From a virus (Duplodnaviria; Caudoviricetes): a DNA stretch of 64,000 nucleotides. Within the stretch, counting starts at the first letter, position 1. The number at the start of each line of letters is the position of its first letter. The notes below the pieces were generated by a model. The model saw nothing but the letters and a program-made list of their open reading frames with translations. It ran no database searches and was not told where the DNA came from. The stretch covers positions 9,075 through 73,074 of the IMG/VR virus record IMGVR_UViG_3300035130_000336. The stretch is one strand, 5' to 3'. Both the position numbers and the translations under genes were made by a program. Shown here piece after piece: positions 1 to 64,000 of the stretch.

Positions 1-2
1 TC

Positions 3-2805: not shown

Positions 2806-2806
2806 A

Positions 2807-6260: not shown

Positions 6261-6397
6261 TAATATAAAGGTTGCCATGCCTTATGCCGTCCTTAACGTA
6301 TACGAACGTGGTAGAAGTTGAGCAACCGTGGTATCGGTTCAACGGTCAATTGGCATGGCAATTATTTTATGATAAATAATATGAAGTTGGAAATAAA

Positions 6398-8657: not shown

Positions 8658-8667
8658 AGGATATAAA

Positions 8668-8928
8668 ATGTCGTTACGAAAGGCAACAAAAATAAGAACA
8701 TTATGCGAAGTTCTTCGTGAAATAAACGATCTTCATCAGGGAGAAACAAAACATGACAGAAAAGTTCGTAAAAGGCTTGTTGAAATTGAGCGTATGGCGA
8801 AAAAAATGTCTTATAAACTTTTGGACTACAATAAGGAATATGATAAAGAATGGTGGGAAACTGTTGAAGGTAAAGAACGTGAAAAACGTTTAAGAAAGCG
8901 GTTGTCAAAATCATATTTAATTGGATAG
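8668..8928 (+). CDS. Hypothetical protein
   Basis: AAGGA RBS before ATG 8668; fills operon gap. Confidence 0.55.
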   Translation: MSLRKATKIRTLCEVLREINDLHQGETKHDRKVRKRLVEIERMAKKMSYKLLDYNKEYDKEWWETVEGKEREKRLRKRLSKSYLIG

Positions 8929-8931
8929 CAT

Positions 8932-9768: not shown

Positions 9769-9769
9769 T

Positions 9770-13293: not shown

Positions 13294-13760
13294 TGAGTCA
13301 ATCAAAAATAGAGATAATAAAAAAATGCGTTTGTAAACAATATTATGATAACAAAAAAAATAGGCTTTCTTCGGTAAAAATGGAATTGGCGATGATTGAT
13401 CGTTTTAAAAGTCGTCATGCTCCAGAAATTATAAGTCGATTTGATAACGGTTATTATATGAAACGCTATGATTATGCTCTTGGAACGACTAAAAAATTAA
13501 ATCGTTTTTGTCCGAACTTTTTGGATGAAATCAATGAAATTGAACGGGATTTAATAAATAGTAGAATTAATCATCGGGATATCAATCCCGGTAATTTACT
13601 GTATTGTGAAGACGAACATTCTTTGATCTTGATAGATTTTTATTGGGCGATTTCATTAGAAATGTCAAAAATAAGAATCGGTAAGTTGAATAAATATTAC
13701 GGAAATGATCGTGATGCGTTTGAAAGGTTAAGAAGAGAATATGGGAAAAACCATTTATAA
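13293..13760 (+). CDS. Kinase-like protein (RIO/Kdo/APH-type fold)
   Basis: 'HRDINPGNLL' catalytic loop and 'LIDF'. Confidence 0.75.
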   Translation: MSQSKIEIIKKCVCKQYYDNKKNRLSSVKMELAMIDRFKSRHAPEIISRFDNGYYMKRYDYALGTTKKLNRFCPNFLDEINEIERDLINSRINHRDINPGNLLYCEDEHSLILIDFYWAISLEMSKIRIGKLNKYYGNDRDAFERLRREYGKNHL

Positions 13761-14658
13761 TTTGGCAAAAGCCCAAATTGATAATTACTGCATATTTCCT
13801 GAAAGGCTTACTATAGAAAAAGATGATGAATATCATTTGCATTATCGAAGTCTTCGTATAGCATTTACCATGCAAGAATATAAAGATTTTCTCAGTTTAA
13901 TGAGATACAATCCAGAAGATAAAAAGAGTATTTTCTTGAAGAAAGTGATAACTTCTAAAGACGATGTGATAAATAAAAATGATCTTGTGATTGAATACAA
14001 TAAAAATACTTACATAAAGCACCGCAACGATTCGGCAAAGGAAGCGGATTTTTTTGAAGAGAAATATTATATCCACGTTCATTACCGCAATATTAGGCTT
14101 GAGTTTCCGATAAAAGAGTTTGTTCAAGTCGCACAAACATTTGAAACAGCACGAAAGTCGTTACCGATAAAAACCATTCAAGATATGTTTTCAGTTATTG
14201 ATGATGTTTCATATGTTGTAATAAGAAATTTTGATAATTTGCCTGATTCCATAAAATTCGGGCAGCATAGCGATCTTGATTTGCTTTTTGCATCAAAAGC
14301 CGATGTTGACAAATTTATTAAACTCACGCATGCCGAAAAAACATTTAAAGAAGAATATCGTGTACAGCATAAAGTAACTATTGGTAACGATTATATTCTT
14401 TGTGATTTGAGAGTGATAGGGGATGATTATTTTCCATTATCCTTATGCGTTGATATGATAAACAACAGAATTCGGTGTAAATGTTTTTGGGTTTCTTCAG
14501 AACCTTGGCATTCAATAGCTTTGACATATCATGCCTATATTCACAAAAAAAACATGACTGATGATTATCGAAAAAGGATAATATGCTCAAAAAATGATAT
14601 ACGAACAATGTTTGAAACAACTAAACCTAAAGACAGATCGGTTTATTATAATCCATGA
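13741..14658 (+). CDS. Hypothetical protein with duplicated N-terminal motif and nucleotidyltransferase-like C-terminal domain
   Basis: 'HLHYRSLRI' and 'HVHYRNIRL' repeat; 'YVVIRNF..LP...SDLDLL'. Confidence 0.5.
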   Translation: MGKTIYNLAKAQIDNYCIFPERLTIEKDDEYHLHYRSLRIAFTMQEYKDFLSLMRYNPEDKKSIFLKKVITSKDDVINKNDLVIEYNKNTYIKHRNDSAKEADFFEEKYYIHVHYRNIRLEFPIKEFVQVAQTFETARKSLPIKTIQDMFSVIDDVSYVVIRNFDNLPDSIKFGQHSDLDLLFASKADVDKFIKLTHAEKTFKEEYRVQHKVTIGNDYILCDLRVIGDDYFPLSLCVDMINNRIRCKCFWVSSEPWHSIALTYHAYIHKKNMTDDYRKRIICSKNDIRTMFETTKPKDRSVYYNP

Positions 14659-15263
14659 TAACCAAAAAAGAGTATAAAAAAATATCTTCCAGATGGACCG
14701 GAAAAATATATCAGAAATGGAAGAAAATAAAAAAGAGGTTTCCCATGATAGAACAACATATTGAATTTTTTAAAGACGCAAAAGTTCTTGAACTTGGAGC
14801 GAACGCGGGAATGTATGCTTTTCTTTTATACCATTATATAAAAAAATATATCGGCATTGAATTTGATGAACATTATTACAATCAATCGCTTCATACGCTC
14901 AAAGGGAAAATGGATGTTACCCTGATAAAAGATAAATTTGAAAACATCGATATCGAGGTATTGGATTATGATTTGTTTTTTGTCTGTTATGTGCTTCACC
15001 ATTTAAATGAAAAGGAAATTAACAAGCTCAATGTAATATTTGATAAATGCAATAAAGTCGCGATCAGTACGAGAAGCGGCGATCCGCTTAAATACGGTCA
15101 TGATGAAATCGGATTCGATCCTCTGCCGAAATGGGAGAACAGCAGAATAAAGAAAATGCTAGATGAACACGGCTTTAAGAGCGAATTGCATCTTATGGGA
15201 AAACATGATTATAACGGTATTTATTTGATATTGGCGGAGAAAAATGATAACAATCAAGGGTAA
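14655..15263 (+). CDS. Class I SAM-dependent methyltransferase
   Basis: 'VLELGANAG', 'YVLHHL'. Confidence 0.8.
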   Translation: MITKKEYKKISSRWTGKIYQKWKKIKKRFPMIEQHIEFFKDAKVLELGANAGMYAFLLYHYIKKYIGIEFDEHYYNQSLHTLKGKMDVTLIKDKFENIDIEVLDYDLFFVCYVLHHLNEKEINKLNVIFDKCNKVAISTRSGDPLKYGHDEIGFDPLPKWENSRIKKMLDEHGFKSELHLMGKHDYNGIYLILAEKNDNNQG

Positions 15264-15837
15264 AGCGAAAAAAATTCCAAAAAAGAAATATAAATGTCCG
15301 AATGACGGTATTCACCGGAAAAAGGAGAGCGGAGGAATTCGCGGGTTTTGGGCGGCGAAGATTTCCGATACATACATATATTATGGCAATTGGTCTTATT
15401 ATATAAAACATATGGATTTCGGATTGAAGGTTTTTTATTCATTGAAATTCAATAAACCGACGAAAACAATCAAGGATGTCAAATCAACGGTGAACATGAT
15501 GGTTGATTTGAAAGAATTCTGTCCAAAAATTTATTGTTACGATATAATAGAAACCGATATCAAATTCGATAAAAGAGTATGTCGTTCGGCTTCTCACGCC
15601 GTCTATATGCAACATATACATTTTTCCGAAAAAGCTTGGTTGAATTTCGCCAAAGGGAAACCGTATGATTGGAGTGCCGACAATCATCCGGCGCATTCGG
15701 AAGTGGGATTTATTGAATTTCGGAATCGGCTTGAAGATGTCGTTAAAGATATTAATTATGATTTCGATCATTTTTCAATAGGTAATATTGTATGGTGTAC
15801 AGTTAATAAACGCTGGTATTTGGTGGATGTAAGATGA
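15244..15837 (+). CDS. Hypothetical kinase-like protein
   Basis: 'GLKVF', 'DHFSIGNIV...YLVD' resemble kinase motifs; paralog of 5661-6260. Confidence 0.55.
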   Translation: MITIKGKAKKIPKKKYKCPNDGIHRKKESGGIRGFWAAKISDTYIYYGNWSYYIKHMDFGLKVFYSLKFNKPTKTIKDVKSTVNMMVDLKEFCPKIYCYDIIETDIKFDKRVCRSASHAVYMQHIHFSEKAWLNFAKGKPYDWSADNHPAHSEVGFIEFRNRLEDVVKDINYDFDHFSIGNIVWCTVNKRWYLVDVR

Positions 15838-16463
15838 TTGTCGGTTTAATGGCATTGTGCAGATTTCCGTATTATGAGGGATGTTTATTATCGTTATGCA
15901 ATCTCGTGGATAAAGTATATCTGCGATTTGATGGGATAACCGGTAATGAAAAAATACGTGAAGTCGCTCCGTATATATGTGGAAATAAATTCGGCGAAAT
16001 GTTGGTAAGTTCTACTGTCTGGAATGCTTTTATATGGCGTGAAGAACTGTTGAGAATGCTTGATGATGTCAAACCGGAACTTGTTTTATTTCCCGATGAG
16101 GATGAAGTTTTCGGTCTTGGAATAGATGATGATTTAAAAAGATTTATAAAAAGTGATAAACAACAGCTTGCATTTAATTATCAATATCCGGCACCGACGA
16201 TAGATGGTTGGAAGCATAAAAAGCCTTATCCTTCAGAACCCCACATCAAGGCATATAAATGGAAGCCGGGATTGACATATATTCCATACAAAAAAAGAGC
16301 TAGTCTAAGTAATTATGGAAAATTTCACTATAAAATGGCGAAAAGTAAAATACTTCATTATTGTTTTTATACTCCGGAATTAAGAAAAAGAAAACTTTGG
16401 ACTACACCAGCTAAAAAGTTATGGTTTCGACAAGAAATGAAAGGGAGAAATGATGAAAAATAA
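15834..16463 (+). CDS. GT2-like glycosyltransferase
   Basis: 'LFPDEDE' DxD motif, 'ILHY'. Confidence 0.6.
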   Translation: MIVGLMALCRFPYYEGCLLSLCNLVDKVYLRFDGITGNEKIREVAPYICGNKFGEMLVSSTVWNAFIWREELLRMLDDVKPELVLFPDEDEVFGLGIDDDLKRFIKSDKQQLAFNYQYPAPTIDGWKHKKPYPSEPHIKAYKWKPGLTYIPYKKRASLSNYGKFHYKMAKSKILHYCFYTPELRKRKLWTTPAKKLWFRQEMKGRNDEK

Positions 16464-16590
16464 GGGTAATTATTCGGGAAAAGGTGGTCGTGGTATTTGT
16501 GGAGGACAGCGAAGAAAAGATGGTTCAGGCGGTGGTGTCGGGAATCGTGGTACAAATAGACAGCCGATTAGTAGGAATAATAAAAAATGA
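16450..16590 (+). CDS. Small Gly/Arg-rich peptide (46 aa), not in the ORF track
   Basis: GGGAG RBS; MMKNKGNYSGKGGRGICGGQRRKDGSGGGVGNRGTNRQPISRNNKK; ATGA overlap with next gene. Confidence 0.55.
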   Translation: MMKNKGNYSGKGGRGICGGQRRKDGSGGGVGNRGTNRQPISRNNKK

Positions 16591-17525
16591 ACTGGCTTTT
16601 TCTTCGTGGACGGATGGAACGGCATTCGGAATGTTTATGGCGAAATCTTGATGAATGTACCGATATGTGGACGCATCTGTTCGCGGGTATGATTGATGAA
16701 AATAATTCAGGAGTTATCTTATACGGTAACGGTCATAGAACCGTTAAATATTCTGATAAATTATGTGAAAAGTGGATTTTAAAATTCAAGGAATATGAAG
16801 GAGAGAAACCTGATATCATCATAGCTCGTGGTGGATTTAAAGACTATGTTCCGTTGTTGAAAAAATATCCTGAAGCGAAAAAAGTTTATTATGGTGCCAA
16901 TCATGGCTGTATTCCAAAAGATGGAATAAAATATGATTTGATTATGTGCGATAGTGAAGAACAGGTAAAGAAATGCCGTAAGCATGGATTGAACGGACAA
17001 CTATTTATTAAACCCGCCGCGCCGCAATTTTATCCTCGATTTTTTAAAAAAAAATATGATGTCGGATTTTCAGCCATATGGCCGAAGGATAAAAGAAAGA
17101 ATGTGGCTTGGGTGCATAAAACCGCTCCGAAGGATTTGAATATACTTCAGATGGGACATGCATGTAAAGCACCGAAAAATATTTTGGTAAAAATGATTGA
17201 TCATGATAAAATGCCGAGAGCGATATCACGATGCAAAGTAATTATCGCTCCTTATACTGGAGAGGATTCATGTCCGAGAATAATTCCGGAAGCTCTGGCT
17301 TGCGGAGTGCATGTAGTTGCTTTGCATGGGTGTCAGTATTGGCGTGAAAAATATCCGGTTGATTATATATCGAAAAAACATTTTTGGGAAACCGTTAAAA
17401 GATGCGTGAAGTATTATCAAAACAATTTGCATGATGATTATAAGGAAACTCTTTCCATACCGGTAGCGGCGGATTGTTTAAGGAGATTAATATATGAAAG
17501 TTGCGATATTCAGCGGCAGGTTTGA
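16587..17525 (+). CDS. GT-B glycosyltransferase
   Basis: 'EDSCPRIIPEALACG'. Confidence 0.7.
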   Translation: MNWLFLRGRMERHSECLWRNLDECTDMWTHLFAGMIDENNSGVILYGNGHRTVKYSDKLCEKWILKFKEYEGEKPDIIIARGGFKDYVPLLKKYPEAKKVYYGANHGCIPKDGIKYDLIMCDSEEQVKKCRKHGLNGQLFIKPAAPQFYPRFFKKKYDVGFSAIWPKDKRKNVAWVHKTAPKDLNILQMGHACKAPKNILVKMIDHDKMPRAISRCKVIIAPYTGEDSCPRIIPEALACGVHVVALHGCQYWREKYPVDYISKKHFWETVKRCVKYYQNNLHDDYKETLSIPVAADCLRRLIYESCDIQRQV

Positions 17526-17934
17526 TCCTTTACATATAGGACATATTCTTACTATAATTGAAATAGCGAAAAAATACGATCATGTATTTGTACCAATATT
17601 AAATTATTCAAATCGATTTATTGAAGTTGAAATAATTTTGAAAATATTTAAAAGAATTTTTGAACATATGGATAATCTTTTTTTTAAAGTAACTCTTATA
17701 GTAAATGAAATACATTTTGGAAAAATTACTTCTAAAGAATATAAAACATTAATTAGAAGTATTAATTGTGAAAATGATGATGTGACATATCTTTCCGGCA
17801 ATTTCGAAGTGCTTGATCATATGAATAAAATAGGAATAAAAAACGAATATTTTAAACGAACCATGGATGAAGTATATACGGGAACGAACATTCGTAATCA
17901 GATCAAAGATGGAGTATGTGAAGAATTTTTATAA
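17494..17934 (+). CDS. Cytidylyltransferase-like nucleotidyltransferase (HIGH superfamily)
   Basis: 'FSGRFDPLHIGH'. Confidence 0.85.
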   Translation: MKVAIFSGRFDPLHIGHILTIIEIAKKYDHVFVPILNYSNRFIEVEIILKIFKRIFEHMDNLFFKVTLIVNEIHFGKITSKEYKTLIRSINCENDDVTYLSGNFEVLDHMNKIGIKNEYFKRTMDEVYTGTNIRNQIKDGVCEEFL

Positions 17935-17952
17935 AATAAATTTGGAAAGAAA

Positions 17953-18660
17953 ATGCATATGAACAATCAAATCGAATCGGCGAAAAAGATACTTGATGAT
18001 TTGACAACGTTGTTTGATTTTCTGGAAACAAGCGATGGTAAATCCATATGGTGGTGTCATTGTTTCGGCGGTGTTCTCGAATTCATAGCGGATAAAACTT
18101 TTTCATTGAATTATGACATCGATATCGGGGTAATGTACGGGGAATGCGATGAAAATAAATTGATATATGCACTGGAAGGACATGGATATAAAGCCGAAAA
18201 AAAATGTATAAATGATGTTAATAAAAAATCGTTTAATATTCATTTTACTCCACGTGAAGAGACGTTGAAAGGGACGCCTACCGTGGATGTCTATTTTTGG
18301 GTTCCGATAGGAGATAAATATTATCATACGTATGATACGAAAAAAGAGGGAAACAAAATACCTTCCGAATATGTGTTCAAGGGTGTGAAAAAATGGTGGT
18401 TGAAACCTTCGCCCGAAATAATAAAAATGGAAAAAAACAAAGGTAAACCCGGACGGGAACAAATGCTTACGGATCAAGGTACGTGGAGGTTTCCGGTTTT
18501 TGGCAGTTCCGGCGGATTGACCATGAGGCTTCCTTATGCAATAGGACATTTGCTCGATACATGGTATTCACCGACGTGGAGATTCAGAGAATATTATAAA
18601 GGACAGAGCATGAGTCCGTGGGTGAAAAAAGTAAAATCTTGCAGGGAATTGGAACAATGA
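17953..18660 (+). CDS. LicD-family phosphotransferase
   Basis: 'FGGVLEFI...YDIDIG', 'VDVYF', 'LLDTWY...W'. Confidence 0.65.
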   Translation: MHMNNQIESAKKILDDLTTLFDFLETSDGKSIWWCHCFGGVLEFIADKTFSLNYDIDIGVMYGECDENKLIYALEGHGYKAEKKCINDVNKKSFNIHFTPREETLKGTPTVDVYFWVPIGDKYYHTYDTKKEGNKIPSEYVFKGVKKWWLKPSPEIIKMEKNKGKPGREQMLTDQGTWRFPVFGSSGGLTMRLPYAIGHLLDTWYSPTWRFREYYKGQSMSPWVKKVKSCRELEQ

Positions 18661-18932
18661 ATTTATGTGAAACCAATAAAGGCGCTGCCTTATATTGGGT
18701 TGAAAGATTCGGTTATGGTAAAGACTGCCGGAAATGTGAACATTATAACGATACATGTTGTTGTGAAATAGCCGATAGAATAATCAAGAAATTGGAAGAG
18801 CATAAAGGTTTTCTTTATAATATTCGCAAAAAAAAGAAGGTATATAGAATTACAGCCCAAGAATGCGACAGGTTCGATTTATGTACTTATCCTTATTCAA
18901 ACGAACTTTATTTAAAAGAAAATGATTTATGA
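18657..18932 (+). CDS. Cys-rich hypothetical protein
   Basis: ATGA overlaps at both ends; CxxC. Confidence 0.5.
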   Translation: MNLCETNKGAALYWVERFGYGKDCRKCEHYNDTCCCEIADRIIKKLEEHKGFLYNIRKKKKVYRITAQECDRFDLCTYPYSNELYLKENDL

Positions 18933-19234
18933 AGGAAAAAACAATTGAGATTTGTTTTTTTGGCACTGTTATTTTCTTAATTGTGTTACTAATTGGTGTA
19001 ACAATATATGGTGGCATGAGTGTTGAGAATAAAACAATAACAGTTACCGTTAAAGAAAAAATATATCAACCTAGTACTGAAGTTTTAATATTTGGACACC
19101 ATGAGGCTTACTACATTATATCTGAAGACAGTGCTGGAAATATGTATAAAACTAAGACCAATTATGCTACTTATGGTGAACTAAATCGAGGAGATGATAT
19201 TTATTTGGATGTAAATGTTAGTAAAGCAAGATAA
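18929..19234 (+). CDS. Membrane-anchored hypothetical protein
   Basis: N-terminal hydrophobic helix. Confidence 0.6.
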   Translation: MKEKTIEICFFGTVIFLIVLLIGVTIYGGMSVENKTITVTVKEKIYQPSTEVLIFGHHEAYYIISEDSAGNMYKTKTNYATYGELNRGDDIYLDVNVSKAR

Positions 19235-19256
19235 GTAAATACAATAAAAAAGGACA

Positions 19257-19943
19257 TTGATTTCAATGAGTTACTTCAATTACGATCGAAAAAGATGGGC
19301 TATTGAAGATATCGCGACTTGTTATGAATGTGCGGAGAAAGTGGGTATCAAAGAAAAGCTGTTCATCAATTTCGGTTTGTTATTGGGAATCATAAGAGAA
19401 AATGATTTTATTCCAAATGATGATGATGTCGATATTTGCGTGCAATCCGATAATGTTTCAAAAAGGCAACAGGAAGAGTATATCAATCGTCTGGATGATC
19501 ATGGATTGTTTTTCGCACGGGAAAAAAAGGTAAAGCGATTTGATAAAGATATGTATTTATGGTTTTCGTTGAGAAAAGAAATCAATAGATCAAAATTTTG
19601 CCATTGGTGGGGATTTAATTGGCAAGGTTATTATTGGTGGTCTAAAGGAAGAAAATGGGTGCGTCCGAATAAATTTGATGGATCACGATGGGGATATGAA
19701 GATACTGATGAAGGAATTGCCTTAGGAATACCGTTAAATTATGTTGAAAAATTAATGTGGATTAAATTCAAAGGAATTAAAATTCAAATTCCTGAAAAAT
19801 ACGGGCATGTTTTGGATTGGGAATATCCGGGATGGCCGGTACCGCAATCGGGAAGCAGCAGAAAACAGGTTGCATGCATCATACCAAAATGGAATAATCC
19901 GCGAGATTGGAAGATAAAAACCGCTTCTTTATCTTTGTATTAA
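19257..19943 (+). CDS. LicD-family phosphotransferase
   Basis: 'FGLLLGIIRENDFIPNDDDVDI' is the LicD signature. Confidence 0.85.
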   Translation: MISMSYFNYDRKRWAIEDIATCYECAEKVGIKEKLFINFGLLLGIIRENDFIPNDDDVDICVQSDNVSKRQQEEYINRLDDHGLFFAREKKVKRFDKDMYLWFSLRKEINRSKFCHWWGFNWQGYYWWSKGRKWVRPNKFDGSRWGYEDTDEGIALGIPLNYVEKLMWIKFKGIKIQIPEKYGHVLDWEYPGWPVPQSGSSRKQVACIIPKWNNPRDWKIKTASLSLY

Positions 19944-19965
19944 TATTTTTTTGTTTTTATTAACG

Positions 19966-20894
19966 TATGCGGTACGTGTGTCGCATACATTAGGTGCAAT
20001 ATGGCAAATGAAAACATGAATATTATACGCGCGGGGCAAGACACAGCGCGTCCTGTGCCGAAGATAAATACAATTACGTGCGGTGATTGTATTGAGGTTA
20101 TGCAATTAGTACCAGACAAAAGTGTCGATATGATTCTTTGTGATTTACCTTATGGTACTACCCAAAATAAATGGGATACTGTAATCCCATTTGTGCCGTT
20201 GTGGAAGCAATACAATCGTATTTGCTTAGGTGCCATTGTTCTTACTGCAAGTCAACCATTTACATCTGCCATAATTATGAGCAATCTAAAAATGTTCAAA
20301 CACGAATGGATTTGGATAAAAAACAGGGGAAGTAATTTTGCAAATACAGTGCGTGAACCGATGAAAGAGCATGAATCGGTTTTGGTTTTTGCTTATGGCA
20401 AATGGACATACAACAAACAGATGCAAGAAAGAACCGGAGGAGGTCTGTCTAGGGTTGGGTACAAGTTTACCTGCTGCACCGAAACCGAAAACTATGGGAG
20501 GATAGGTAACCCAAAAGAAGCGCAGGGAGAGTTGCGGGTTCCATCTTCGTGGCAAAAGTTCAATACTGAGGTTGGATTGCATCCAACACAAAAACCAGTA
20601 GCCCTTTTCGAGTACCTAATCCGCACCTACACAAACGAAGGTGATACGGTTCTGGATAATTGCATAGGTTCAGGCACAACAGCAATAGCCTGTATTAACA
20701 CCGGAAGAAATTATATCGGAATTGAGAAGGAAGAAAGATACTGCCGGATAGCAGAAGAGCGCATCCATGCGCTAAGAAGCCCCGTGCAGAACACTAAAGA
20801 AATTTGCCATACAGCACCTAACAGCGGTAGGGATGCCATGCTGCTGACACTATGGAATGAGAATAAATAGGCGGCACGACACACGTACCGCATA
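19966..20894. mobile_element. Inverted-repeat-bounded cassette carrying the DNA methyltransferase
   Basis: Perfect 18-bp inverted repeat TATGCGGTACGTGTGTCG (19966-19983) / CGACACACGTACCGCATA (20877-20894); attC-like ACCTAAC...GTT hairpin at the 3' end. Confidence 0.5.
20001..20870 (+). CDS. N6-adenine/N4-cytosine DNA methyltransferase (beta class)
   Basis: 'DMILCDLPYG', 'HPTQKPVAL', 'VLDNCIGSGTT'. Confidence 0.93.
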   Translation: MANENMNIIRAGQDTARPVPKINTITCGDCIEVMQLVPDKSVDMILCDLPYGTTQNKWDTVIPFVPLWKQYNRICLGAIVLTASQPFTSAIIMSNLKMFKHEWIWIKNRGSNFANTVREPMKEHESVLVFAYGKWTYNKQMQERTGGGLSRVGYKFTCCTETENYGRIGNPKEAQGELRVPSSWQKFNTEVGLHPTQKPVALFEYLIRTYTNEGDTVLDNCIGSGTTAIACINTGRNYIGIEKEERYCRIAEERIHALRSPVQNTKEICHTAPNSGRDAMLLTLWNENK

Positions 20895-46818: not shown

Positions 46819-47199
46819 ATGAAAATTCGAAATCTTTCGGAATTGAATAAATATCCTATTCCGGAACATATAAAGCAACAGATCGTTGATGCATACCGAA
46901 AAAAAAAGAATGGAGATAATACTCCCCATTCCGTTACCGACATGGAACCGGCTTCTCGAAATGAATCCGTTTCAGCGTATTCGGGTGAGACATTTGATTC
47001 ACCTGTTCATATCGATATTTATTCTACCCGAAAGCAAAAGACCGACATTGATAACATATCGGGGAAAGCCGCAATCGACGGAATCGTTAATTGCGGAATA
47101 CTTGAAACTGATTCGCCCGACCAAATCGAAAGCTATCAGGTCCATAAGCCGGAAATATCGCCGGTAGAACAGACGGTGATAGTGATTGAGGAGGTATGA
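46819..47199 (+). CDS. rusA: RusA-like Holliday junction resolvase
   Basis: 'DIDNISGKAAIDGIVNCGILETDS..QI' matches RusA D-x-D-N..K...D......DD motif. Confidence 0.75.
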   Translation: MKIRNLSELNKYPIPEHIKQQIVDAYRKKKNGDNTPHSVTDMEPASRNESVSAYSGETFDSPVHIDIYSTRKQKTDIDNISGKAAIDGIVNCGILETDSPDQIESYQVHKPEISPVEQTVIVIEEV

Positions 47200-47202
47200 T
47201 GC

Positions 47203-48240
47203 GCCTTTGCTTCGCACGACCAAACGATACTTAGCTTTGCTTTTGCTGGGCTAAACACAACAATGCCCCACATTGCCTTTGCAAAACAATGCATTGCATT
47301 ACTTCACTTTGCCTTTGCAACACAATACGCAACACTACCATGCTCTGCCTATGCTCTACTTTACATAACATGACCGCACTTTGCCTTTGCATTACATTAC
47401 ATTACCACGCCTTTACATTACCATACTCAACACCACCATGCTCCGCCTATGCTTCACACGCCGCTACTTCGCTTCGCTTTGCCTTTGCATTACTTCACTA
47501 CACTATACGGTGCTTTTGCATTACTCCACTACACCTGACTCCGCATTGCCTTTGCAACACTATACATTGAATAGCCTTTCCAATGCATCGCAATACTTAA
47601 CTATGCTGATCCTTTGCTAGCACAGCTTCACCATACACTACTTTTGCTTTGTCGTACTGAACGGAACTTTGCCCAACCATTGCAACACATGGCTATACTG
47701 CACAATACAATACCTTCGCATGGCGATACGAAACAAGGCTTCACACTTCCTTTGCGTCGCTAAACCACGCAAAACTATGCCTTTGCCGTATTGAACGGAA
47801 CTTCGCTTTGCCTTTGCGGCGTAAAACTACGCTTCACTCAGCTTCTGCTTTACGCAACGAAACAGCACTATGCTTTACCTTTGCCATACAGCACATCACT
47901 TCGCTTTTGCTTGGCCACTCCTAACTATTCTGTGCCTGTGCCACACGATACAACGCCTCGCCAAGCCTGTGCTTTGCTCCACCGTATCCGGCCCTGCTTT
48001 ACCAAACCATTACAACACAGTGCAGTACAAGGCTATGCCTGTGCTTAACTATACTAGACTTTGCCTGTGCCAAACATGACGAGACTTTGCCTGTGCTTAA
48101 CTTTACTTTGCTTAACGGCACCATACCACGCCTGTGCTCTACTAAACATCACTGTACTTTGCCTGTGCCATACACCACCCTGCAATACATGGTATTAGCG
48201 ATGTTTGACCGCACCGGGCATTCCTATACTTTGGATTGCC
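47203..48240 (-). repeat. Pentamer-grammar array A: + strand (RC-NNN)n punctuated by GCCTTT/GCCTGT; candidate guide-RNA array directly downstream of the RAMP gene
   Basis: e.g. gcctgtgc tct actaa acatc actgt acttt gcctgtgc (48130-48168); degenerate over the last ~50 nt. Confidence 0.9.
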
Positions 48241-48241
48241 T

Positions 48242-48877
48242 TTAGCTTTTTAAATAATTGACGGTAAAGCGGCCTTTTCCACTGTTTCGCCACTGTCCGA
48301 TGCCGCGCAATTGGCCATAATCAAGCCATTCGCGTACGAACTTTTCATGGCTGTCACTTAAACACTGAATTTCCAATTCGCAGGTGCTTCCTGCGGGGAC
48401 GGTTTCACTGTTCGCCAAAGCAATTCTCTCGCCCTGTGCGGTATTTCCGCGAAGAGGACGTTGACAGTTTCCCATCTTGCCTTTTACTTTGATGGCAATC
48501 ATTCTCGGGTGAACGAAAATACATCCATCGATCACCTTTTTATACGCTCTTAATTCTCCCTTCTTTCCTTTACCCGATTCGGATTTTGACGCCTTATACG
48601 TTTCGAATCCCTCACAGCGCATGAGAGCGGCGCAGGTATCCTTGAAAAACCCCTTCCACTGGTAATCCCAAAAGATGGGATTACTATCCTTATCGCGTGG
48701 AAAAATAGTCATTGCTTTTTCAACAACTTCTTCTATCCCGATCGCTTCCACTTCTTCTTCCCGCGACAGCTTATCGGGAGCCTTGCTTGCTATATACTCC
48801 GCATGGATTTCTTTTGACGGACTTGCTGTTCCCAACACTTCTTCTTGGAAAGTGATTTTTACTTTGAGCGTTTTCAT
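48242..48877 (-). CDS. Stand-alone Cas7-like RAMP-superfamily protein
   Basis: RAMP motif order: beta1 'LKVKITFQEEVLGT', 'PIFWDYQWKGFFK' (cf. PxIPGSSLKG), 'ETVPAGSTCELEI' (cf. E.VPxGxxFxFxI), C-terminal G-rich loop 'GIGQWRNSGKGRF'. Confidence 0.8.
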   Translation of the reverse strand: MKTLKVKITFQEEVLGTASPSKEIHAEYIASKAPDKLSREEEVEAIGIEEVVEKAMTIFPRDKDSNPIFWDYQWKGFFKDTCAALMRCEGFETYKASKSESGKGKKGELRAYKKVIDGCIFVHPRMIAIKVKGKMGNCQRPLRGNTAQGERIALANSETVPAGSTCELEIQCLSDSHEKFVREWLDYGQLRGIGQWRNSGKGRFTVNYLKS

Positions 48878-48911
48878 ACTGAACCTTTCTGATAAAATTG
48901 AGGGTTGATTT

Positions 48912-49030
48912 ACCTTTGCATAACTTCACAACACATTGTTTTGCCTTTGCGTTGCCAAACTATTCCTTGCTCAACTCTGCCGTTGCAAAACACCACATTG
49001 CAATACAGCACTTTACAATTGCGATACATC
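48912..49030 (-). repeat. Pentamer-grammar array B (short), immediately upstream of the RAMP gene
   Basis: acctttgc ata acttc acaac acatt gtttt gcctttgc gtt gccaa actat... Confidence 0.8.
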
Positions 49031-49162
49031 TCCTTTCTGTTTGAACCATTTGGTTTTTTCTTTATAATATTTTCTACTCTCCTCTCTTGTTTTATTTTTT
49101 GTTTCTCTATACATTTTGTCACGGGTTTTTCTTATGAATCTCATTACTTTGAAATTTTTCAT
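49013..49162 (-). CDS. Small basic helical protein (49 aa) between arrays B and C, not in the ORF track
   Basis: MKNFKVMRFIRKTRDKMYRETKNKTREESRKYYKEKTKWFKQKGDVSQL translated by hand; occupies the non-repeat gap. Confidence 0.5.
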   Translation of the reverse strand: MKNFKVMRFIRKTRDKMYRETKNKTREESRKYYKEKTKWFKQKGDVSQL

Positions 49163-49196
49163 AATTGATATTTTTTTTGAGATAATAAAAGAAACC

Positions 49197-50716
49197 GTGC
49201 TGTTCCATACGATACGTTACATCGACCTGCTTTTGCAACACTTAACTACGCAAATCCATACAAAGCTTTTGCGGGGCTAGACTAGACATCACAGTACCCC
49301 TGCCTCGCTGCGCGTTACATTACTATGCATTACCCCTGCCCCGCTGCGCGTCACATTGCTATGCTTTACCTTTGTTTTGCTGGGCAATACGTTACCGTGC
49401 GTTGCCATGCCTGTACGGAACTTTACTTAACTCTACTTAGCCTTTGCTCCACAAAACATAACTTCACTTTGCCATTCCTGTGCTACACAAGACACAACCT
49501 TACTCTACCATGCCTTTCCTTTGCTTGGTTATACTGTACCATGCCATACCTGCGCAATACCCCACAATACCGAACTGTACAATGCTACGCCTTAACAATG
49601 CCAAACAGCGCTTTGGCATGCATTGCCGGTGCTGTGCCAAACTACTCAACGCTTTACCATCGCCATGCCAAGCTTTGCCGTTCCTTTGCCGCACTAAACG
49701 CCGCGATACCATGCCTGTGCATAACCATGCATAACTGTGCTCTGCCTGTGCATTACTGAACAACATACCGCTTTGCCTTACCTTTGCAGAACAATGCTTC
49801 GCTATGTATTGCCTGTGCTCCACAATGCATCACAATACTTCACATTGCTTCGCCTTTGCCATACAGCGACATGCGATACTCCGCCTTTCCTTTGCAAAAC
49901 ACAGCGTCACAACGCATAGCCTATGCTTCACGAAACAGCACGTCACAAAACTATGCCTTTGCGTCACTAAACTACACAGTGCCTGTGCTTTACTAAACAT
50001 CACTTTGCTTTTGCATAACAGCACATCACTACGCCTGTGCTTCACCTTACTTCACTCTACATTGCCTGTGCCGCGCAATACATAGCGAAACCAGACCATG
50101 CCTGTGCATAACGTTACCAAACTCTGCTGTGCCTGTGCATTACCTTACCTCACTTCGCTTTACCATGCCAGCGCACCACGGTACAGCACTATGCCTGTGC
50201 ATCACGCTACCAAACAATACATTGTCATGCATGTGCATCACATTACTTCACTTCCCACCGCCTGTGCCTTACTAAACTCCACTCTACAGTGCCTGTGCAT
50301 CACTTGACTTCGCTCTACCTCGCTTTGCCTGTGCATTACATCACCACACAGTGCTTTGCCGGTGCTTCACGTTACAACACTATACACTACATATCCTAAC
50401 CATTTCTTTGCCAAACAGTGCATCACCATACAATGCCGGTGCCATACATTGCTATACCATGCATCGCCTGTGCTTTGCTTCACTCCACCTCGCTTTGCCT
50501 GTGCTTGGCTTAACCACGCTCTGTCTGTGCATTGCATCACGGCACACAACGGGACAGCACTACGCCTGTGCATCACTAAACTATACTGTGCCTGTGCTTG
50601 GCTTAACTAATCTGTGCCTGTGCATCACTTCGCCGCACATAGTTCTGCTGGTGCTTTGTATTACTATACTATGCATCGCCTGTGCATGACAGTACATCAC
50701 ATTGCTTTGCCTCTGT
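49197..50716 (-). repeat. Pentamer-grammar array C (longest, ~1.5 kb)
   Basis: Continuous RC-NNN register with GCCTGT/GCCTTT/GCCGGT punctuation. Confidence 0.92.
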
Positions 50717-50874
50717 ATTGATTCTCTGTTTTTGATACCCTCCCGAATTGATTTTTTGGTTCTCAGAGGCTACAAAAAGACTACAATTGGCCCTGATGAT
50801 AGTATATTTAAGGATAAAATTACTCATGATGGAAAGCAGGTTTTTAAAAAAAGTGCCCAAATTCGTTAAAAAAA

Positions 50875-50929
50875 CGGAGGGGAGAGGATTTGAACCTCCG
50901 GTAGAGTTGCCCCTACGCAGGTTTAGCAA
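50875..50929 (-). other. attP core: 3' half of a tRNA-Ser(GCT)
   Basis: Minus strand TTGCTAA-ACCTG-CGTAGGGGCAACTCTAC-CGGAGGTTCAAATCCTCT-CCCCTCCG = anticodon loop, long variable arm, T-arm, acceptor 3' strand; 5' half absent; ~40 nt from the integrase stop. Confidence 0.85.
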
Positions 50930-50970
50930 CTCTACGGCGGAGTAGGTTTCACCCAATAAAACCAATGGTT

Positions 50971-52023
50971 CTATGCCGTCTTTCGCAGCGAAAAGGCTAC
51001 CTGAGGGCTACATAATACGTCATTTATGATATCAATCTGACGCCGGTTGTCGTAAACATGCTGCGTTTTCGGACTCGTTTGAATGCCCATTTTCTTTAAC
51101 ATCTCATAGGTGAATCCCTGCCGCAACAGATACGTCTCCGCGCAATGCTTTAAATCGTGCCAGTTGAAATCATAAATCCCCACCTGTTTTAAAACTGTAT
51201 CGAAATGCCATCGGGGATCGCTGATTTTTTTCCAGACGACCTTTCCGTTTTTCCGTTCCAACATGGGAAAGAGCCACGGACAATCCTTCGGCAACGAATG
51301 GGCGTACCGGACAAAATCCATGTCGATATTCGGCAGGATCGTTACCCGGATTTTATCTTTCGTTTTCTTCGCCTGAAAACGAACGACCCATCGTGATACT
51401 TCCATCTGAAGATTTTTTCGCTGTAAATTGAAAAGATCCCCCTTGCGGATGGGATTAATAAGGGAGAATTTTACCGCTTCGAGAATGTGGGATTTATGTA
51501 AGGTCAAATAATTGATCAGGGCGTTTTTTTCGCCGTCGGAGAGAATCCGATTGCGCTCGTTGCCTTTCCTGATCCTCCATTTTCTGACCGTGGTTCGACC
51601 GCACCGCCCGGTTTCATAAGCGAAATTGCAGATTGACCGGACGACGATTTTATAATTATTGACGGTATTGACCGCAAGGCCGCTCCCTTCGAGATTTCCG
51701 ACATACCGGCTGTAACCGGCGGCGAAAATCTGCTTGTCGGGAAACAGACGACCCAATTCCTTAATCGATCGGTCGTAACACGCCTGATTAAATCCCCCGC
51801 GTCCGCGCTCGTTCAAATAAAGTTCCGCGCATTTGGAAAATCGTAACGATGTCAAAGAACAATCTCCCGTCAATGAACGGGCTTCGATCTGATTTTTTAA
51901 ATGCTGATCGAAATTATCCGTCTTGCGGCGGAAGTGACGCGCCTTTCCCGCGCCGTTTCGGTATGCCCGGTCAACGTAATACCACCGAACCCCATTTGCA
52001 TCATTCTTATACCAGACTCGCAT
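50971..52023 (-). CDS. int: Tyrosine recombinase / integrase
   Basis: GGGAGGAG RBS before ATG 52023; SAM-like domain 'NTVNNY'; 'IRKGDL', 'WHDLKH', 'MGIQT...HVYD'. Confidence 0.85.
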   Translation of the reverse strand: MRVWYKNDANGVRWYYVDRAYRNGAGKARHFRRKTDNFDQHLKNQIEARSLTGDCSLTSLRFSKCAELYLNERGRGGFNQACYDRSIKELGRLFPDKQIFAAGYSRYVGNLEGSGLAVNTVNNYKIVVRSICNFAYETGRCGRTTVRKWRIRKGNERNRILSDGEKNALINYLTLHKSHILEAVKFSLINPIRKGDLFNLQRKNLQMEVSRWVVRFQAKKTKDKIRVTILPNIDMDFVRYAHSLPKDCPWLFPMLERKNGKVVWKKISDPRWHFDTVLKQVGIYDFNWHDLKHCAETYLLRQGFTYEMLKKMGIQTSPKTQHVYDNRRQIDIINDVLCSPQVAFSLRKTA

Positions 52024-52094
52024 ATCTCCTCCCTTTTCAGGGAGGGTATCTGAGTATAATATAGTATCAGGTAGGGGAAAAGAGGGTATATTTT

Positions 52095-52367
52095 CTACGC
52101 TTTTACGCATACCGCATTATAGATGATTTTATTGGCGTATTCCGGACAGAATTCAGGCGTTTTCGACATATCGTATCGATTGCCCTGTTCGTATTTCACG
52201 CAAGTGTTTTTGAGGGGACACTCTTCACAGGTCGGAATATCTTTTTTCCACCGGTCGGCGTATTCCCGGCAGCCGCCGAGCATACATCGCGGACTCCACT
52301 TATGCGGGACGGCGGAGGGACACCCTTCACACTCTTTTACGGCTTTGCCGCAAATATAGAGGCTCAT
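52095..52367 (-). CDS. Cys-rich hypothetical protein
   Basis: Multiple CxxC; overlaps xis stop. Confidence 0.55.
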   Translation of the reverse strand: MSLYICGKAVKECEGCPSAVPHKWSPRCMLGGCREYADRWKKDIPTCEECPLKNTCVKYEQGNRYDMSKTPEFCPEYANKIIYNAVCVKA

Positions 52368-52567
52368 TTTTTTCTTCCTCTCTCCGGCAATAAAAACTCT
52401 CCGCCGGTCAGTCGTTTTTCAATATCGGCACGCCTGAACCGATAAATTCCCCCGATTTTTACCATACCGGGCAGACGTCGTAACGCCATGTATTTTTCGA
52501 TGAACTTTTTACTGACGTTCAACCTCTCGCTCAGCTCGTCGGGAGTCATCAGCGAATCTTTCGTCAT
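52364..52567 (-). CDS. xis: Excisionase-like HTH protein
   Basis: 'LMTPDELSERLNVS...LPGMVKIGGIYRFRRADIE'; AAGGAG RBS. Confidence 0.8.
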   Translation of the reverse strand: MTKDSLMTPDELSERLNVSKKFIEKYMALRRLPGMVKIGGIYRFRRADIEKRLTGGEFLLPERGRKK

Positions 52568-52578
52568 ACGCGCTCCTT

Positions 52579-53079
52579 GCCTTTGCATCACTGAACATTA
52601 CTTTGCATTGCCATGCCTGTGCTTGACTACGCCTTACTTCGCCTGTGCTATACTAAACTTCACATCGCATCGCCTGTGCTACACCAAACAACACTGCGCA
52701 CTGCCTGTGCCTAACTCAACAATGCCAAACCGTGCCTGTGCTTAACAAAACAACACCATGCTAATCCTGTGCTTCACATAACTGAACAGCACTATGCATT
52801 GCCTGTGCCGCGCAATACACCACCTCGCTTTGCCTGTGCTGGGCCAAACATTACCCTGCCTTGCCTGTGCATAACGAAACTCCACCGCGCATTACCTGTG
52901 CATTACCTTACCAAACCTTACATCACCATGCCTGTGCAAAACTTGACATTGCTTCACGATGCCTGTGCTTAACAAAACATGTCATAACAATGCATTGCCT
53001 ATGCTTAACCAAACCGTGCTGTACCTGTGCTTGACAATACATCACCCCACGGTGCCTATGCATTACCTTACCAAACACC
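52579..53079 (-). repeat. Pentamer-grammar array D, 16 punctuation motifs, units of 26/31/36 nt
   Basis: Motif starts at 52579, 52615, 52641, 52672...; fills the space between the SSB-like stop codon and the xis RBS. Confidence 0.95.
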
Positions 53080-53080
53080 G

Positions 53081-53509
53081 TTAAAACGGCAGATCGGAAT
53101 CCGCTGGGGGAGCGTTGTTCTGGTCCGCCAGATGTTTCGCTTCACGGCACACGTAATCATCGATTTTGTTCTTGTCGGGATAGATGCCGTTTTTATCCAC
53201 TTCGATACCGATTTTTGCTTTACCGACACGACCTTCGAAATCGAAGGCTCTGAGGCTTCCCGTTTCGTATTTCGCCAGCAGCCCGAAAGCATCGCATGCA
53301 TGGCGGAGTTTCGCGGGCATCTCATCAAGCAGATAGTCATAGATTCTGTTGACGACGCGATCCCCCAACCAGACGGCAATAGTAAGCCGGATCATCTCCT
53401 TGTCGTTTTTACTTACCTGATCGATCGCTTCGATCACTTCGACGTCGTAAACGCCTTTATCGATGATTTTTCTCGGTAGATCTTTTTCCGAATAGGTTTT
53501 GAACCTCAT
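53081..53509 (-). CDS. SSB-like protein (DUF669-like)
   Basis: 'KGVYDVEVIEA...SKNDKEMIRL'; acidic C-terminal 'DSDLPF'. Confidence 0.7.
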   Translation of the reverse strand: MRFKTYSEKDLPRKIIDKGVYDVEVIEAIDQVSKNDKEMIRLTIAVWLGDRVVNRIYDYLLDEMPAKLRHACDAFGLLAKYETGSLRAFDFEGRVGKAKIGIEVDKNGIYPDKNKIDDYVCREAKHLADQNNAPPADSDLPF

Positions 53510-61317: not shown

Positions 61318-61710
61318 TTAATCGGGAACAATGGCGGTAATTATGTACTCATCACCGGGATCGCATTCCGCATCATCAAAGATCCGGATATACCAGTTAC
61401 CATAATACCATAACGGGGAATGCCACATATAACCGCTTCCTTTGCGGACATAGCAGTTAATAAGTATGGTATCAGGTAACATAACAAAAAAATCTTCATG
61501 CCCGAGTAATATGATTTCCCAATAATCCTTTCCCTCGACTTTATCGGAGGAGTAAAGAATACCGCTCTTTACAATCGGACGTATCTCTCCCGGTTCTCCT
61601 TGTTCTCCTTGCAATCCTTGTGGTCCTTGCGGACCTGCCGGACCCGTTGGCCCTCGAAGGCTGTTGCAGGAGAATAGACATAATAAAATTAAGATAACTG
61701 AAATTTTCAT
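61318..61710 (-). CDS. Lipoprotein with short collagen-like (GXY) repeat
   Basis: Signal peptide and lipobox 'LFSC'; 'GPTGPAGPQGPQGLQGEQGEPG'. Confidence 0.75.
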   Translation of the reverse strand: MKISVILILLCLFSCNSLRGPTGPAGPQGPQGLQGEQGEPGEIRPIVKSGILYSSDKVEGKDYWEIILLGHEDFFVMLPDTILINCYVRKGSGYMWHSPLWYYGNWYIRIFDDAECDPGDEYIITAIVPD

Positions 61711-62120
61711 GTCTTTACTCCTTCCTTTTCGACTTCACAATGAGTAATAATGAACCTTCGATCTGAAAGGATTCGAAAACGCATGCATATAAAGCATTCC
61801 CGACAAGGTGCGCCGTTGTTCTTTTCACAGAAGCATCTCTTCCATTCATATGCGTCTTCATTACCAAAACGTGCCGTTCGAATATAATCAGCGACGACAT
61901 GATTAACCACATAGAAGTCGGGCTTTGTATATTCATCCTCTTCGGCAATATAAGGGCTGATATCCAATTCATTTTTTATCTGAAGAGCTTTAGATACATC
62001 CTCAAACAACAAAGCGTGAGGAACGGCGAGTTCTTTCATCGATCGGTAAAACTGCGGCATTTCCAGACATTTGATGTCCGGTTGTTTCGCATGTCGTAGA
62101 ACGGCGATTGCGTATCTCAT
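61707..62120 (-). CDS. Hypothetical protein with C-terminal Cys cluster
   Basis: AAGGAG RBS before MRYAIAV; the upstream extension in the ORF track runs into array E. Confidence 0.55.
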   Translation of the reverse strand: MRYAIAVLRHAKQPDIKCLEMPQFYRSMKELAVPHALLFEDVSKALQIKNELDISPYIAEEDEYTKPDFYVVNHVVADYIRTARFGNEDAYEWKRCFCEKNNGAPCRECFICMRFRILSDRRFIITHCEVEKEGVKT

Positions 62121-62152
62121 GATGGGACTCCTTTTGTTAAAGTTAAAATAGT

Positions 62153-62186
62153 GGTTTCGTCTCAAAAAACGAGACGAAACCTTTTT
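62153..62186. terminator. 11-bp perfect hairpin at the left (minus-strand 3') end of array E
   Basis: GGTTTCGTCTC-AAAAAAC-GAGACGAAACC followed by TTTTT. Confidence 0.55.
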
Positions 62187-62198
62187 CTGCTTTTCATA

Positions 62199-62998
62199 GC
62201 AATACAACTCCATACTGCACCTCGCATTGCCTGTGCATAACATTACCACGTTTTACTATGCTTTGCCTAAGCCGTACGCAGCGGTACTTTACTTTGCCTG
62301 TGCGGAACTGTACTATGCTTTGCCCCGCTTTGCCTAAGCTATACATTACTATGCCTTACTATGCCTTGCCTGAGCTATACATCACAGTGCTAATTTATGC
62401 CTGTGCTTCGCTATTCTTCACTACGCCTAGCCTTTACATCGCGCTACCGCACGTTACAATGCCTATGCCAAACGGTACTGTTCCAGACTATGCCTATGCT
62501 ATACAATACTTCACTAAACAATGCCTATGCCAAACGGAGCGTAACTATACTCCTCTGTGCTATTGCCATGCAATACTATACACTGCATTACCTATGCCAT
62601 ACTTCCCCGTGCTTCACATTGCTTTTGCTTTGCCATGCATGACAAAGCTATACCCCGTTTTGCTTTTGCCTAGCCGCGTTCCACTTTGCCTAACCTGTGC
62701 AGTGTTTCACACCACCTTTCTACGCACCGCCATTGCTGTACTACACAGTGCTCTGCTTCACCTTGCCTTTACTGTACATTGCTAAACTTCACTGTACTTC
62801 ACCATGCCTTTTCAGTGCCAAACAATTCGATACTGAACTATGCCTGTGCTTTACTGAACTCTACAAAACTTCACATTGCCTTTGCTTAGCATCACCTATC
62901 TTCACAATGCTTCGCCTTTGCTTTGCTTGGAAACACGGGGCCAAACTAAACCGTGCCTTTGCAGTGACAAGCGCTGCATTGCTTTTCAATGCATTAGC
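62199..62998 (-). repeat. Pentamer-grammar array E
   Basis: e.g. gcctatgc tat acaat acttc actaa acaat gcctatgc; punctuation GCCTGT/GCCTAT/GCCTAA/GCCTTT. Confidence 0.9.
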
Positions 62999-63085
62999 GA
63001 AAATAATTATAAATTTTCCCTGCCTTTTTCCTTATCCTCATCCGCCTGATACAATGAAGGCAGTGAATCGGGACAGGGAAAATTT

Positions 63086-63370
63086 ACTTTGCTCAAGGCA
63101 TGCCATTGCAGGGCTCGACAGCACATAACAAAAGTATGCAATGCTATGCCTTTGCCATACACTACATGGCCTAACTACGCTTTGCTTTTGCACGGCGCAA
63201 CATGGCCCAACTGCACTATGCCTTTACAACACAATACATTGCTATACTTGGCATTACCTTTGCTTTGCATTGCTTAACATTACCCAGCTATAGCGTGCCA
63301 TTGCATCACATCACTATACTAAGCTGCGCTTTTGCTTTGCAATGCGTAACAAGGCCCAACTACGCCATGG
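63086..63370 (-). repeat. Pentamer-grammar array F
   Basis: e.g. gcctttgc cat acact acatg gccta actac gcttt gcttttgc. Confidence 0.85.
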
Positions 63371-63682
63371 CAATATTTTTTCCATCCTTTCTATTGTTTT
63401 TGAGTTAAAAAAATATTTTAACGTTTGCTTTCCTTCATAGAGAATTCTTTAATAATAACCTTTCGGCAATATTCCGGCAATGAATTCTTTCTCTCAATTG
63501 ATTGTATTTATTTTTATATTAATTCATAACCAAAATGGTAATCATTTTTATATTCTCCGTGTTGTTTATAAAAACGCAAACAAGCGGATTTACTGCCAGT
63601 AAATACTACATTTTCAATATCATCACCATACCATACTTGCCATTTTCTTTTCATGTTCTTACTCCTTTCAATTCAGATCTTG

Positions 63683-63937: not shown

Positions 63938-64000
63938 ATTAACCCCTTTCCGGTTAATAAGATGGTTTATTTATCCTATTATATAGACATTTTCAAAAAC

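Follow-up and report, generated by a model that had tools for sequence, protein, structure and literature searches.

RNAs that carry a short motif at fixed spacing, with many sites per transcript, are familiar from the (G/U)AG repeats bound by TRAP and from the sponge RNAs CsrB and RsmZ. Among phages, the closest described systems are arrays of tandem interspaced guide RNA (TIGR) with their Tas proteins, and the RNA anti-CRISPRs (Racrs) or viral solitary repeat units, named after CRISPR, the short palindromic repeats that are clustered and regularly interspaced. A TIGR unit comprises two alternating 8–12-nucleotide (nt) repeats and two 9-nt spacers with box C/D motifs, and its partner carries a Nop domain (PMC12045711); Racrs are reported to imitate the CRISPR repeats of the host and to rely on its Cas proteins (PMC10651486). 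Here we describe two arrays of five-nucleotide steps, E and F, at positions 62199–63370 of a 64,000-nt stretch of DNA (the window) that forms the final 64 kb of a 73,074-nt Caudoviricetes phage record, IMGVR_UViG_3300035130_000336. Coordinates are those of the window unless the record is named. E and F may be minus-strand untranslated RNA that is coated in a 5-nt register by the single Cas7-like protein of the phage (P0001), the two arrays acting as remote tracks loaded in trans; we place about as much belief as doubt in this reading.

The proteins of the TRAP and CsrB systems are unrelated to P0001, and TRAP is a closed ring with 11 sites, whereas the arrays described here offer hundreds of sites with a +1 step per 4–7 repeats. 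The likeness to the Cas7 filaments of class 1 effectors (Csm3/Cmr4, type VII Cas7) lies in P0001, which models as the same fold class with a glycine-rich RAMP loop and is predicted to self-associate head to tail, and in array units quantised by a fixed step. The array step is 5 nt instead of 6, however, and includes a conserved base; the arrays lack the 23–50-nt repeats and foreign-derived spacers of class 1 CRISPR, and the system is phage-encoded and placed in early operons. A CRISPR array was rejected, as the sole recurring element is a degenerate 9-nt punctuation (TGC-CTNTGC) that varies within E; the sequences between punctuations were likewise rejected as CRISPR spacers, being 5-nt periodic, compositionally restricted and diverging by point changes. 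No cas1/cas2, Cas5, Cas10/Cas8 or Cas6 was found among the screened neighbours of the RAMP gene, which comprise integrase, helix-turn-helix (HTH)/excisionase, Sak4-like, replisome-organiser and RusA-like genes. TIGR arrays are likewise phage-borne, non-CRISPR arrays of short units (~36 nt) beside a small RNA-binding protein, and are missed by CRISPR finders; TIGR-Tas was nevertheless rejected for this locus, where the Nop domain is absent (the fold matches Cas7), as are dual repeats and box C/D motifs (PMC12045711; 10.64898/2026.09.09.750476), and the 5-nt periodicity seen here does not feature in the TIGR array descriptions consulted. Racrs are similar in being phage-encoded non-coding RNAs that engage Cas-type proteins (PMC10651486), but the present phage brings its own Cas7-like protein, and its arrays bear no likeness to CRISPR repeats. 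Covariance models of Rfam 15 gave no match at gathering score over the window and none at E ≤ 1 over 62100–63520, and the arrays showed no evolved RNA structure (z-scores near 0 on either strand).

Periodicity was scored in 200-nt scoring windows as the match at lags 5 and 10 minus that at lags 3, 4 and 6–9. Over the whole record, scores above 0.09 were confined to four regions (47127–48301, 48802–50776, 52452–53176 and 62102–63476), with peaks of 0.22–0.26 within tracts, ~8–10 standard deviations over the rest of the genome (mean −0.005, standard deviation 0.025, maximum 0.064, n = 676 scoring windows). The tracts, each given with its probable strand, and the Cas7-like gene are as follows.

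62199–62999, probably minus strand: array E, ~153 steps; G-first pentamers with one 6-nt step per 5–7 pentamers; 21 units of 31, 36 or 41 nt.
63087–63368, minus strand: array F, ~46–55 steps with E-type grammar; 5 complete units of 31, 36 or 41 nt.
47205–48195, minus strand: array A, directly 3′ of P0001 after a 46-nt gap.
48915–49030, minus strand: array A2, a short tract within the P0001 5′ leader.
49220–50712, minus strand: array B/C, 3′ of the integrase and an attP-like transfer RNA (tRNA) fragment.
52578–53080, minus strand: array D, 5′ of an excisionase-like HTH gene.
48242–48877, minus strand: P0001, a Cas7/Csm3-like RAMP protein of 211 amino acids (aa), the sole such gene in the genome.

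A dynamic-programming parse, in which tetramers were penalised slightly more than hexamers, resolved the plus strand into NNNRC pentamers interrupted by one hexamer (C-NNN-RC, mostly C-T-N-T-G-C) per 4–7 pentamers, resulting in unit lengths of 26, 31, 36 or 41 nt (5n+1). Across the tracts of this phage, plus-strand position 5 is C in 95–100% of pentamers and position 4 is a purine (R) in 93–99%; on the minus strand, C is nearly restricted to pentamer position 2. Array E comprises 131 pentamers (95% C-final) and 22 hexamers, the latter separated by units of 31 nt (nine), 36 nt (nine) and 41 nt (three), and F comprises 40 pentamers (97% C-final) and 6 hexamers, with units of 31, 36 (three) and 41 nt. 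All six tracts are C-rich on the plus strand (GC skew −0.29 to −0.34). Parse, periodicity and skew thus bear out the first-pass annotation, made from the sequence alone, that E and F share grammar and strand with the four tracts at 47.2–53.1 kb. Punctuation differs in part, as had been reported: CTGTGC accounts for 5 of the 22 hexamers in E (alongside CTATGC 4, CTTTGC 3, CTAAGC 2, CTTTAC 2 and TTTTGC 2) versus 13/15 in D, and E is more varied than the main tracts, with CTAAGC seen in E alone. Content is diverse, 102 of the 128 possible NNNRC pentamers being in use. The summed length of the six tracts is ~4.18 kb (5.7% of the genome; ~4.2 kb had been estimated), of which E and F add ~1.1 kb to the ~3.1 kb of tract around the Cas7-like gene. 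E begins 13.3 kb from that gene, close to the 13 kb first given, whereas the description of the arrays as dispersed across the genome was overstated, as they are limited to two regions.

A sister phage, represented by the IMG/VR contig behind loci L001 and L030 (flanking genes 89–97% identical), allowed turnover and constraint to be compared between related genomes. It carries E and F at the identical site, E at 85% identity and F with unit-level rearrangements. Indels between the two phages (103, 119, 10, 15 and 5 nt) correspond to whole units or pentamers rather than to multiples of three, and register is kept. Plus-strand ORFs (open reading frames) of 175 and 143 aa that overlap E were rejected as coding, because the indels of 103, 119, 10 and 5 nt break any frame and because G-poor sequence holds few stop codons. 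Point differences in E and F are unevenly placed: plus-strand pentamer positions 1–4 mismatch at 29/158, 27/157, 26/156 and 28/157 (17–18%), whereas the periodic C of position 5, which is G on the minus strand, differs at 4/161 (2.5%); a stricter local-identity filter gave 13–17% at positions 1–4 versus 2/107 at position 5. For comparison, six flanking genes differ at 51/344 four-fold degenerate sites (14.8%) and at 19/929 second codon positions (2.0%). With the periodic base as constrained as second codon positions and the content nearly neutral, selection retains the ruler and not the content. Seven other prophage pairs showed 15/498 mismatches at G versus 12–22% at the remaining positions (4 of 11 pairs were dropped for having too few aligned columns). 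The suggestion that the arrays are under selection is supported in this form, by the periodic base and by the register-keeping indels. In a further relative, a contig of run X2 joins 50066 to 52920, which indicates that B/C and D there form one continuous array without the integrase cassette, and Logan contigs of other runs show more unit-scale joints within arrays.

A ruler that is kept while its content drifts argues against the function first proposed, in which the arrays are guides for a single effector in trans. As guide arrays, the tracts would be cut at the hexamers into 26–41-nt RNAs and loaded into P0001 complexes, E and F being remote guide sets. Several features are in keeping with this: unit lengths are quantised by one pentamer (26/31/36/41), much as type III CRISPR RNAs (crRNAs) differ by one Cas7 footprint, the TGC-CTNTGC punctuation is conserved within this phage, pentamer content is diverse, and the partner protein models as a Cas7-like fold. 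Yet the variable positions drift at a near-neutral rate between the sister phages with the periodic base alone kept, the differences seen in the arrays are in-register indels and point changes, with no gain of unrelated spacers, and across the family the punctuation sequence is not conserved, the extra base alone persisting. Guides of this composition could not match ordinary sequences, because minus-strand C is nearly restricted to one pentamer position; no self-targets above shuffled controls were found in the phage's own genome, and a blastn search with E and F (11-nt words) against 50,697 GenBank phage records returned no match. We therefore consider guides quite unlikely. What stands of the earlier proposal is the action in trans: the genome has one such gene, so any protein partner of E and F must act in trans.

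The association of the protein family with such arrays extends well beyond this phage, and repeats of this type are seen almost exclusively next to a gene for a phage Cas7-like protein. In IMG/VR, a 5-nt periodic tract of 0.5–1 kb lies directly 3′ of the homologue in 12 of 12 loci, with shared grammar and differing punctuation sequence. Bacterial loci were taken from one-genome-per-species assemblies (80 of 166 confirmed loci analysed, 78 of them with at least 500 nt downstream); the tract lies directly 3′ in 66/78 and directly 5′ in 10 more, the exceptions being L042, where one tract lies 0.5 kb upstream and another 1.9 kb downstream, and L108, which lacks any. On the strand of the gene, each of the 66 downstream tracts is rich in G. 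In three loci (L042, L053 and L099) co-directional ORFs lie between the gene and additional tracts; satellites of this kind thus recur, none of those seen being more distant than E and F. Parsing 96 arrays (5 from the window and 91 from relatives) yielded 8853 pentamers, 1419 hexamers, 186 tetramers and 22 heptamers, with unit lengths peaking at 26/31/36 nt (296/360/219) and a median step of 5.14 nt. Family-wide, G alone is universal; the second base is lineage-dependent (U/C here, C/A in most gut relatives), and of the punctuation the extra base is kept and the sequence is not. In the 12 viral loci, no gene other than the Cas7-like one was found to be conserved. By the titles of metagenome-assembled genome and isolate records, hosts are mainly Clostridia, with Bacteroidota, Actinomycetota, Megasphaera, Synergistaceae and Chitinivibrionales also represented, and loci L100 (Eggerthella) and L105 (Megasphaera) stem from isolates; the family occurs in sediment phages too, and its bacterial carriers include prophages of gut Clostridia.

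P0001 itself had no match in Pfam, PHROG, NCBIfam or PADLOC. Modelled with AlphaFold2 from 36 homologues (mean predicted local distance difference test (pLDDT) a modest 76.8), it was most similar in Foldseek to type VII Cas7 and Csm3 (E 2e-7 to 1e-5); there were 96 PDB matches at E ≤ 0.001, and among the matches listed all were CRISPR-Cas effector complexes. VIA-align superimposed the model on Csm3 (9g9a_D; Z 11.2, root mean square deviation 3.0 Å, 152 residues aligned), the next matches being Cmr4-type, gRAMP and type IV Cas7 chains. In profile comparison, a C-terminal glycine-rich motif of the family, with Q195, W196, R197, N198 and G202 invariant and G192, G194 and G200 almost invariant, aligned weakly to the Csm4 glycine-rich loop (E 0.019) and to that of type VII Cas7 (E 0.034). 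Based on fold and this one motif, P0001 models as a member of the RAMP/Cas7 superfamily with an RRM-like core and Cas7 topology, which agrees with the RAMP identity assigned before, the model being of the Cas7/Csm3 kind (AlphaFold2, Foldseek and VIA-align). A three-copy prediction, modelled without RNA, scored 0.63 versus 0.30 for the best of three controls and gave head-to-tail, open-polymer-like contacts, although, Cas7 filaments having already been solved, the score may reflect likeness only. Among proteins of solved structure, the mark used for such complexes is attained by 20 of 30 one-chain pairs and 1 of 23 single chains; in the three-copy runs at least 35% of contacts agree, with a partner pLDDT of at least 73. 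The family is very large: of 8,000 candidates scored, at least 7,922 matched at E ≤ 0.001. Clusters at 50% identity number 1,651, and the nearest Atlas clusters are 88–98% viral. This genome gave a single match for the RAMP gene, and no other Cas-like protein was found among ~50 screened proteins, a subset of the ORFs. The 22 longer homologues contributed one C-terminal Big_2 domain and no other extra domain. Proteins P0136, P0167 and P0129 include double-length members with two Cas7-like stretches (458 and 432 aa) and the carrier of the Big_2 domain.

The functional strand of the arrays is most likely minus, the strand of the RAMP gene. The arrays lie on the strand of all surrounding genes, and the neighbours of E and F are minus-strand ORFs throughout, as the first-pass annotation had it. 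Since the 46-nt gap between P0001 and array A holds no listed terminator-like site, co-transcription of array A with the gene in the sense direction is hard to avoid. The minus strand is also favoured by the fold of the inter-array hairpin, which is more stable on it, by the 11-bp hairpin that follows E in the minus sense, and by the strong sense-strand terminators at the array ends of L008 and L012. We hypothesize that the arrays are transcribed as untranslated portions of minus-strand operons and that P0001 polymerises head to tail on the array RNA, with about one protomer per pentamer reading the periodic G. By analogy with Cas7 subunits measuring crRNA in 6-nt steps, the array would be a ruler with G every 5 nt and one extra nucleotide per 4–7 steps, and E and F, 13 kb away, would be loaded in trans as an added track. 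Selection on the register, and not on the sequence between the Gs, would make the tracts scaffolds or decoys rather than sequence-specific guides. Our leading guess, held weakly, is that the product is an early-expressed ribonucleoprotein, acting as a counter-defence decoy or an RNA scaffold.

Several observations weigh against such a coated RNA track. A search of sequencing runs listed 17 DNA holders but no RNA holder. In Cas7 proteins known so far, each subunit binds 6 nt with no readout of sequence; a sequence-reading 5-nt register is a property that we infer here for a Cas7 fold. A clear terminator follows the array in no more than 2–3 of the 12 viral loci (L008 and L012, with a weak one in L001). 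The predicted minus-strand RNA is structured like that of ordinary genes (−37 to −47 kcal/mol per 150 nt; −37 to −40 for arrays A to E), whereas the predicted plus-strand RNA of A to E is far less structured (−21 to −25 kcal/mol per 150 nt, against about −31 for plus-strand genes), which would better suit a single-strand binder and goes unexplained if the minus strand is the functional one. In-phase misalignment can inflate the conservation of the periodic G, in the prophage pairs as well, an effect limited by the local-identity filters. The large array load, E and F included, is unusual because five near-complete relatives hold one array apiece, and could in part be repeat expansion merely tolerated by selection. 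Finally, the mean step of 5.14–5.17 nt doubles to ~10.3 nt, near the helical repeat of B-DNA, which also fits a role at the DNA level.

In such a role the tracts would act as DNA or as RNA:DNA hybrids, for example as R-loop zones or as single-strand binding tracks in replication or recombination, with the Cas7-like protein binding the displaced G-rich strand or the hybrid. The spacing of two steps is joined here by the strong G skew of the non-template strand and by genomic context: in relatives the module is set among NinB/Orf, SSB, Holliday-junction resolvase and replication-initiator genes, and in the window Sak4-like, replisome-organiser and RusA-like genes adjoin. Immunoglobulin switch regions, which are pentamer-based, G-rich and orientation-dependent, provide a precedent. 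However, the RAMP/Cas7 fold is known as an RNA binder, and the arrays lack G runs of the kind that nucleate R-loops; on balance we regard a DNA-level element as improbable. Nor need the pentamer array be an origin, because relative G004 (locus L024) has a separate repeat beside its replication genes: at 12100–12650, 10-nt units of the AAACCAAAGN kind flank a replication-module gene. This second periodic tract of G004 was rejected as a pentamer array, being an iteron-like 10-nt repeat unrelated to the pentamer grammar.

E and F could also be slippage-prone satellite DNA, spread by duplication and tolerated without any function. Fast change by unit-sized indels, content evolving at a near-neutral rate and an array load far above that of the five relatives would all be expected of such DNA. 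The periodic base, by contrast, is conserved like second codon positions (2.5% vs 2.0%), grammar and orientation are kept in prophages of Clostridia, Bacteroidota, Actinomycetota and other groups (by record titles), and in the sister phage E and F occupy an unchanged site, the element between them being 97% conserved. Functionless expansion of this kind thus seems very improbable.

Returning to P0001 on an RNA ruler, the wider proposal is that of a widespread, undescribed phage ribonucleoprotein: a solo Cas7-like protein that reads a ruler in place of CRISPR repeats and assembles along its own transcripts for kilobases, with remote tracts such as E and F loaded in trans. It would represent a non-CRISPR Cas7 backbone, a relic or offshoot of class 1 effectors, possibly serving as a decoy against RNA-guided or RNA-sensing host defences. 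We advance this tentatively, with doubt slightly outweighing belief. The literature, excluding the supplementary tables of the TIGR and rare-CRISPR surveys, yielded no account in which pentamer arrays accompany a phage Cas7-like protein, and we rate the array or RNA component as new and the protein as a new and distant branch within a known fold. This very large family spans prophages of many groups and sediment phages, and is without annotation. If the proposal is true, the Cas7 backbone also occurs outside CRISPR, paired with an RNA type of its own, a simple rule (G every 5 nt) becomes available for programmable protein-RNA polymers, and kilobases of apparent junk in many phage genomes are explained. 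The value of E and F would lie in indicating that the tracts can work away from the gene.

The flanks of E and F hold the following elements and genes.

62153–62181 (arms 62153–62163 and 62171–62181), minus strand: 11-bp GC-rich hairpin between the minus-sense 3′ end of E and the next gene.
62996–63105, minus strand: non-periodic conserved element between F and E, with a 13-nt inverted repeat (63010–63022 and 63074–63086) forming a long hairpin.
63371–63445, minus strand: conserved AT-rich sequence, upstream of F when read in the minus sense; identity to the sister phage is 96%.
61707–62123, minus strand: gene of 138 aa with no assigned function, downstream of E in the minus sense.
63514–63654, minus strand: ORF of 46 aa, upstream of F in the minus sense.

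The 11-bp hairpin said to end array E does exist, just outside 62199–63370, and ends E solely if E is read on the minus strand. It is terminator-like on either strand (fold z −4.8 minus, −4.3 plus). The inter-array element folds at −39.8 kcal/mol (z −3.8) on the minus strand versus −32.4 (z −2.6) on the plus strand, and over its 110 nt shares 97.3% identity with the sister phage, compared with 85% for E. The AT-rich stretch may hold promoter or terminator signals, weak sigma-70-like minus-strand matches lying nearby at 63497–63468 and 63480–63452. A 20-nt piece of the inter-array element (63014–63033) recurs at record positions 2996–3015 and 2527–2544 with identities of 95% and 94%, close to where early and late control regions diverge, and may be a shared regulatory site.

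The phage is temperate. Its structural genes include a P22-type portal and a major head protein; lysogeny is represented by the integrase beside the tRNA-like attP fragment and by the excisionase-like HTH gene, and replication and recombination by a Sak4-like annealing protein, a replisome organiser and a RusA-like resolvase. The minus-strand gene block runs from 47.2 kb to the window end and through the first 3 kb of the record. The cassette of integrase, 90-aa ORF and excisionase (50971–52591) is located within the array field, and the tRNA 3′-end-like fragment (50880–50950), a probable attP core, adjoins the integrase; a tRNA scan found none. Contigs of runs X2 and X8 match the phage briefly beside the Cas7-like gene (~48199 and ~48894) and then run into other sequence, which resembles a type I-E-style CRISPR repeat; this may reflect host spacers directed at the region. 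An 18-nt direct repeat occurs at both ends of the record (window 63983–64000; record 1–18), which is classed as linear; a complete genome of ~73,056 nt, either circular or with terminal redundancy, is therefore probable. Positions 1–20000 form a low-GC block (28–40% GC) of plus-strand ORFs, of which 0/4 sampled matched PHROG. Two DNA methyltransferases are encoded, at window positions 20001–20870 and record positions 4852–5811.

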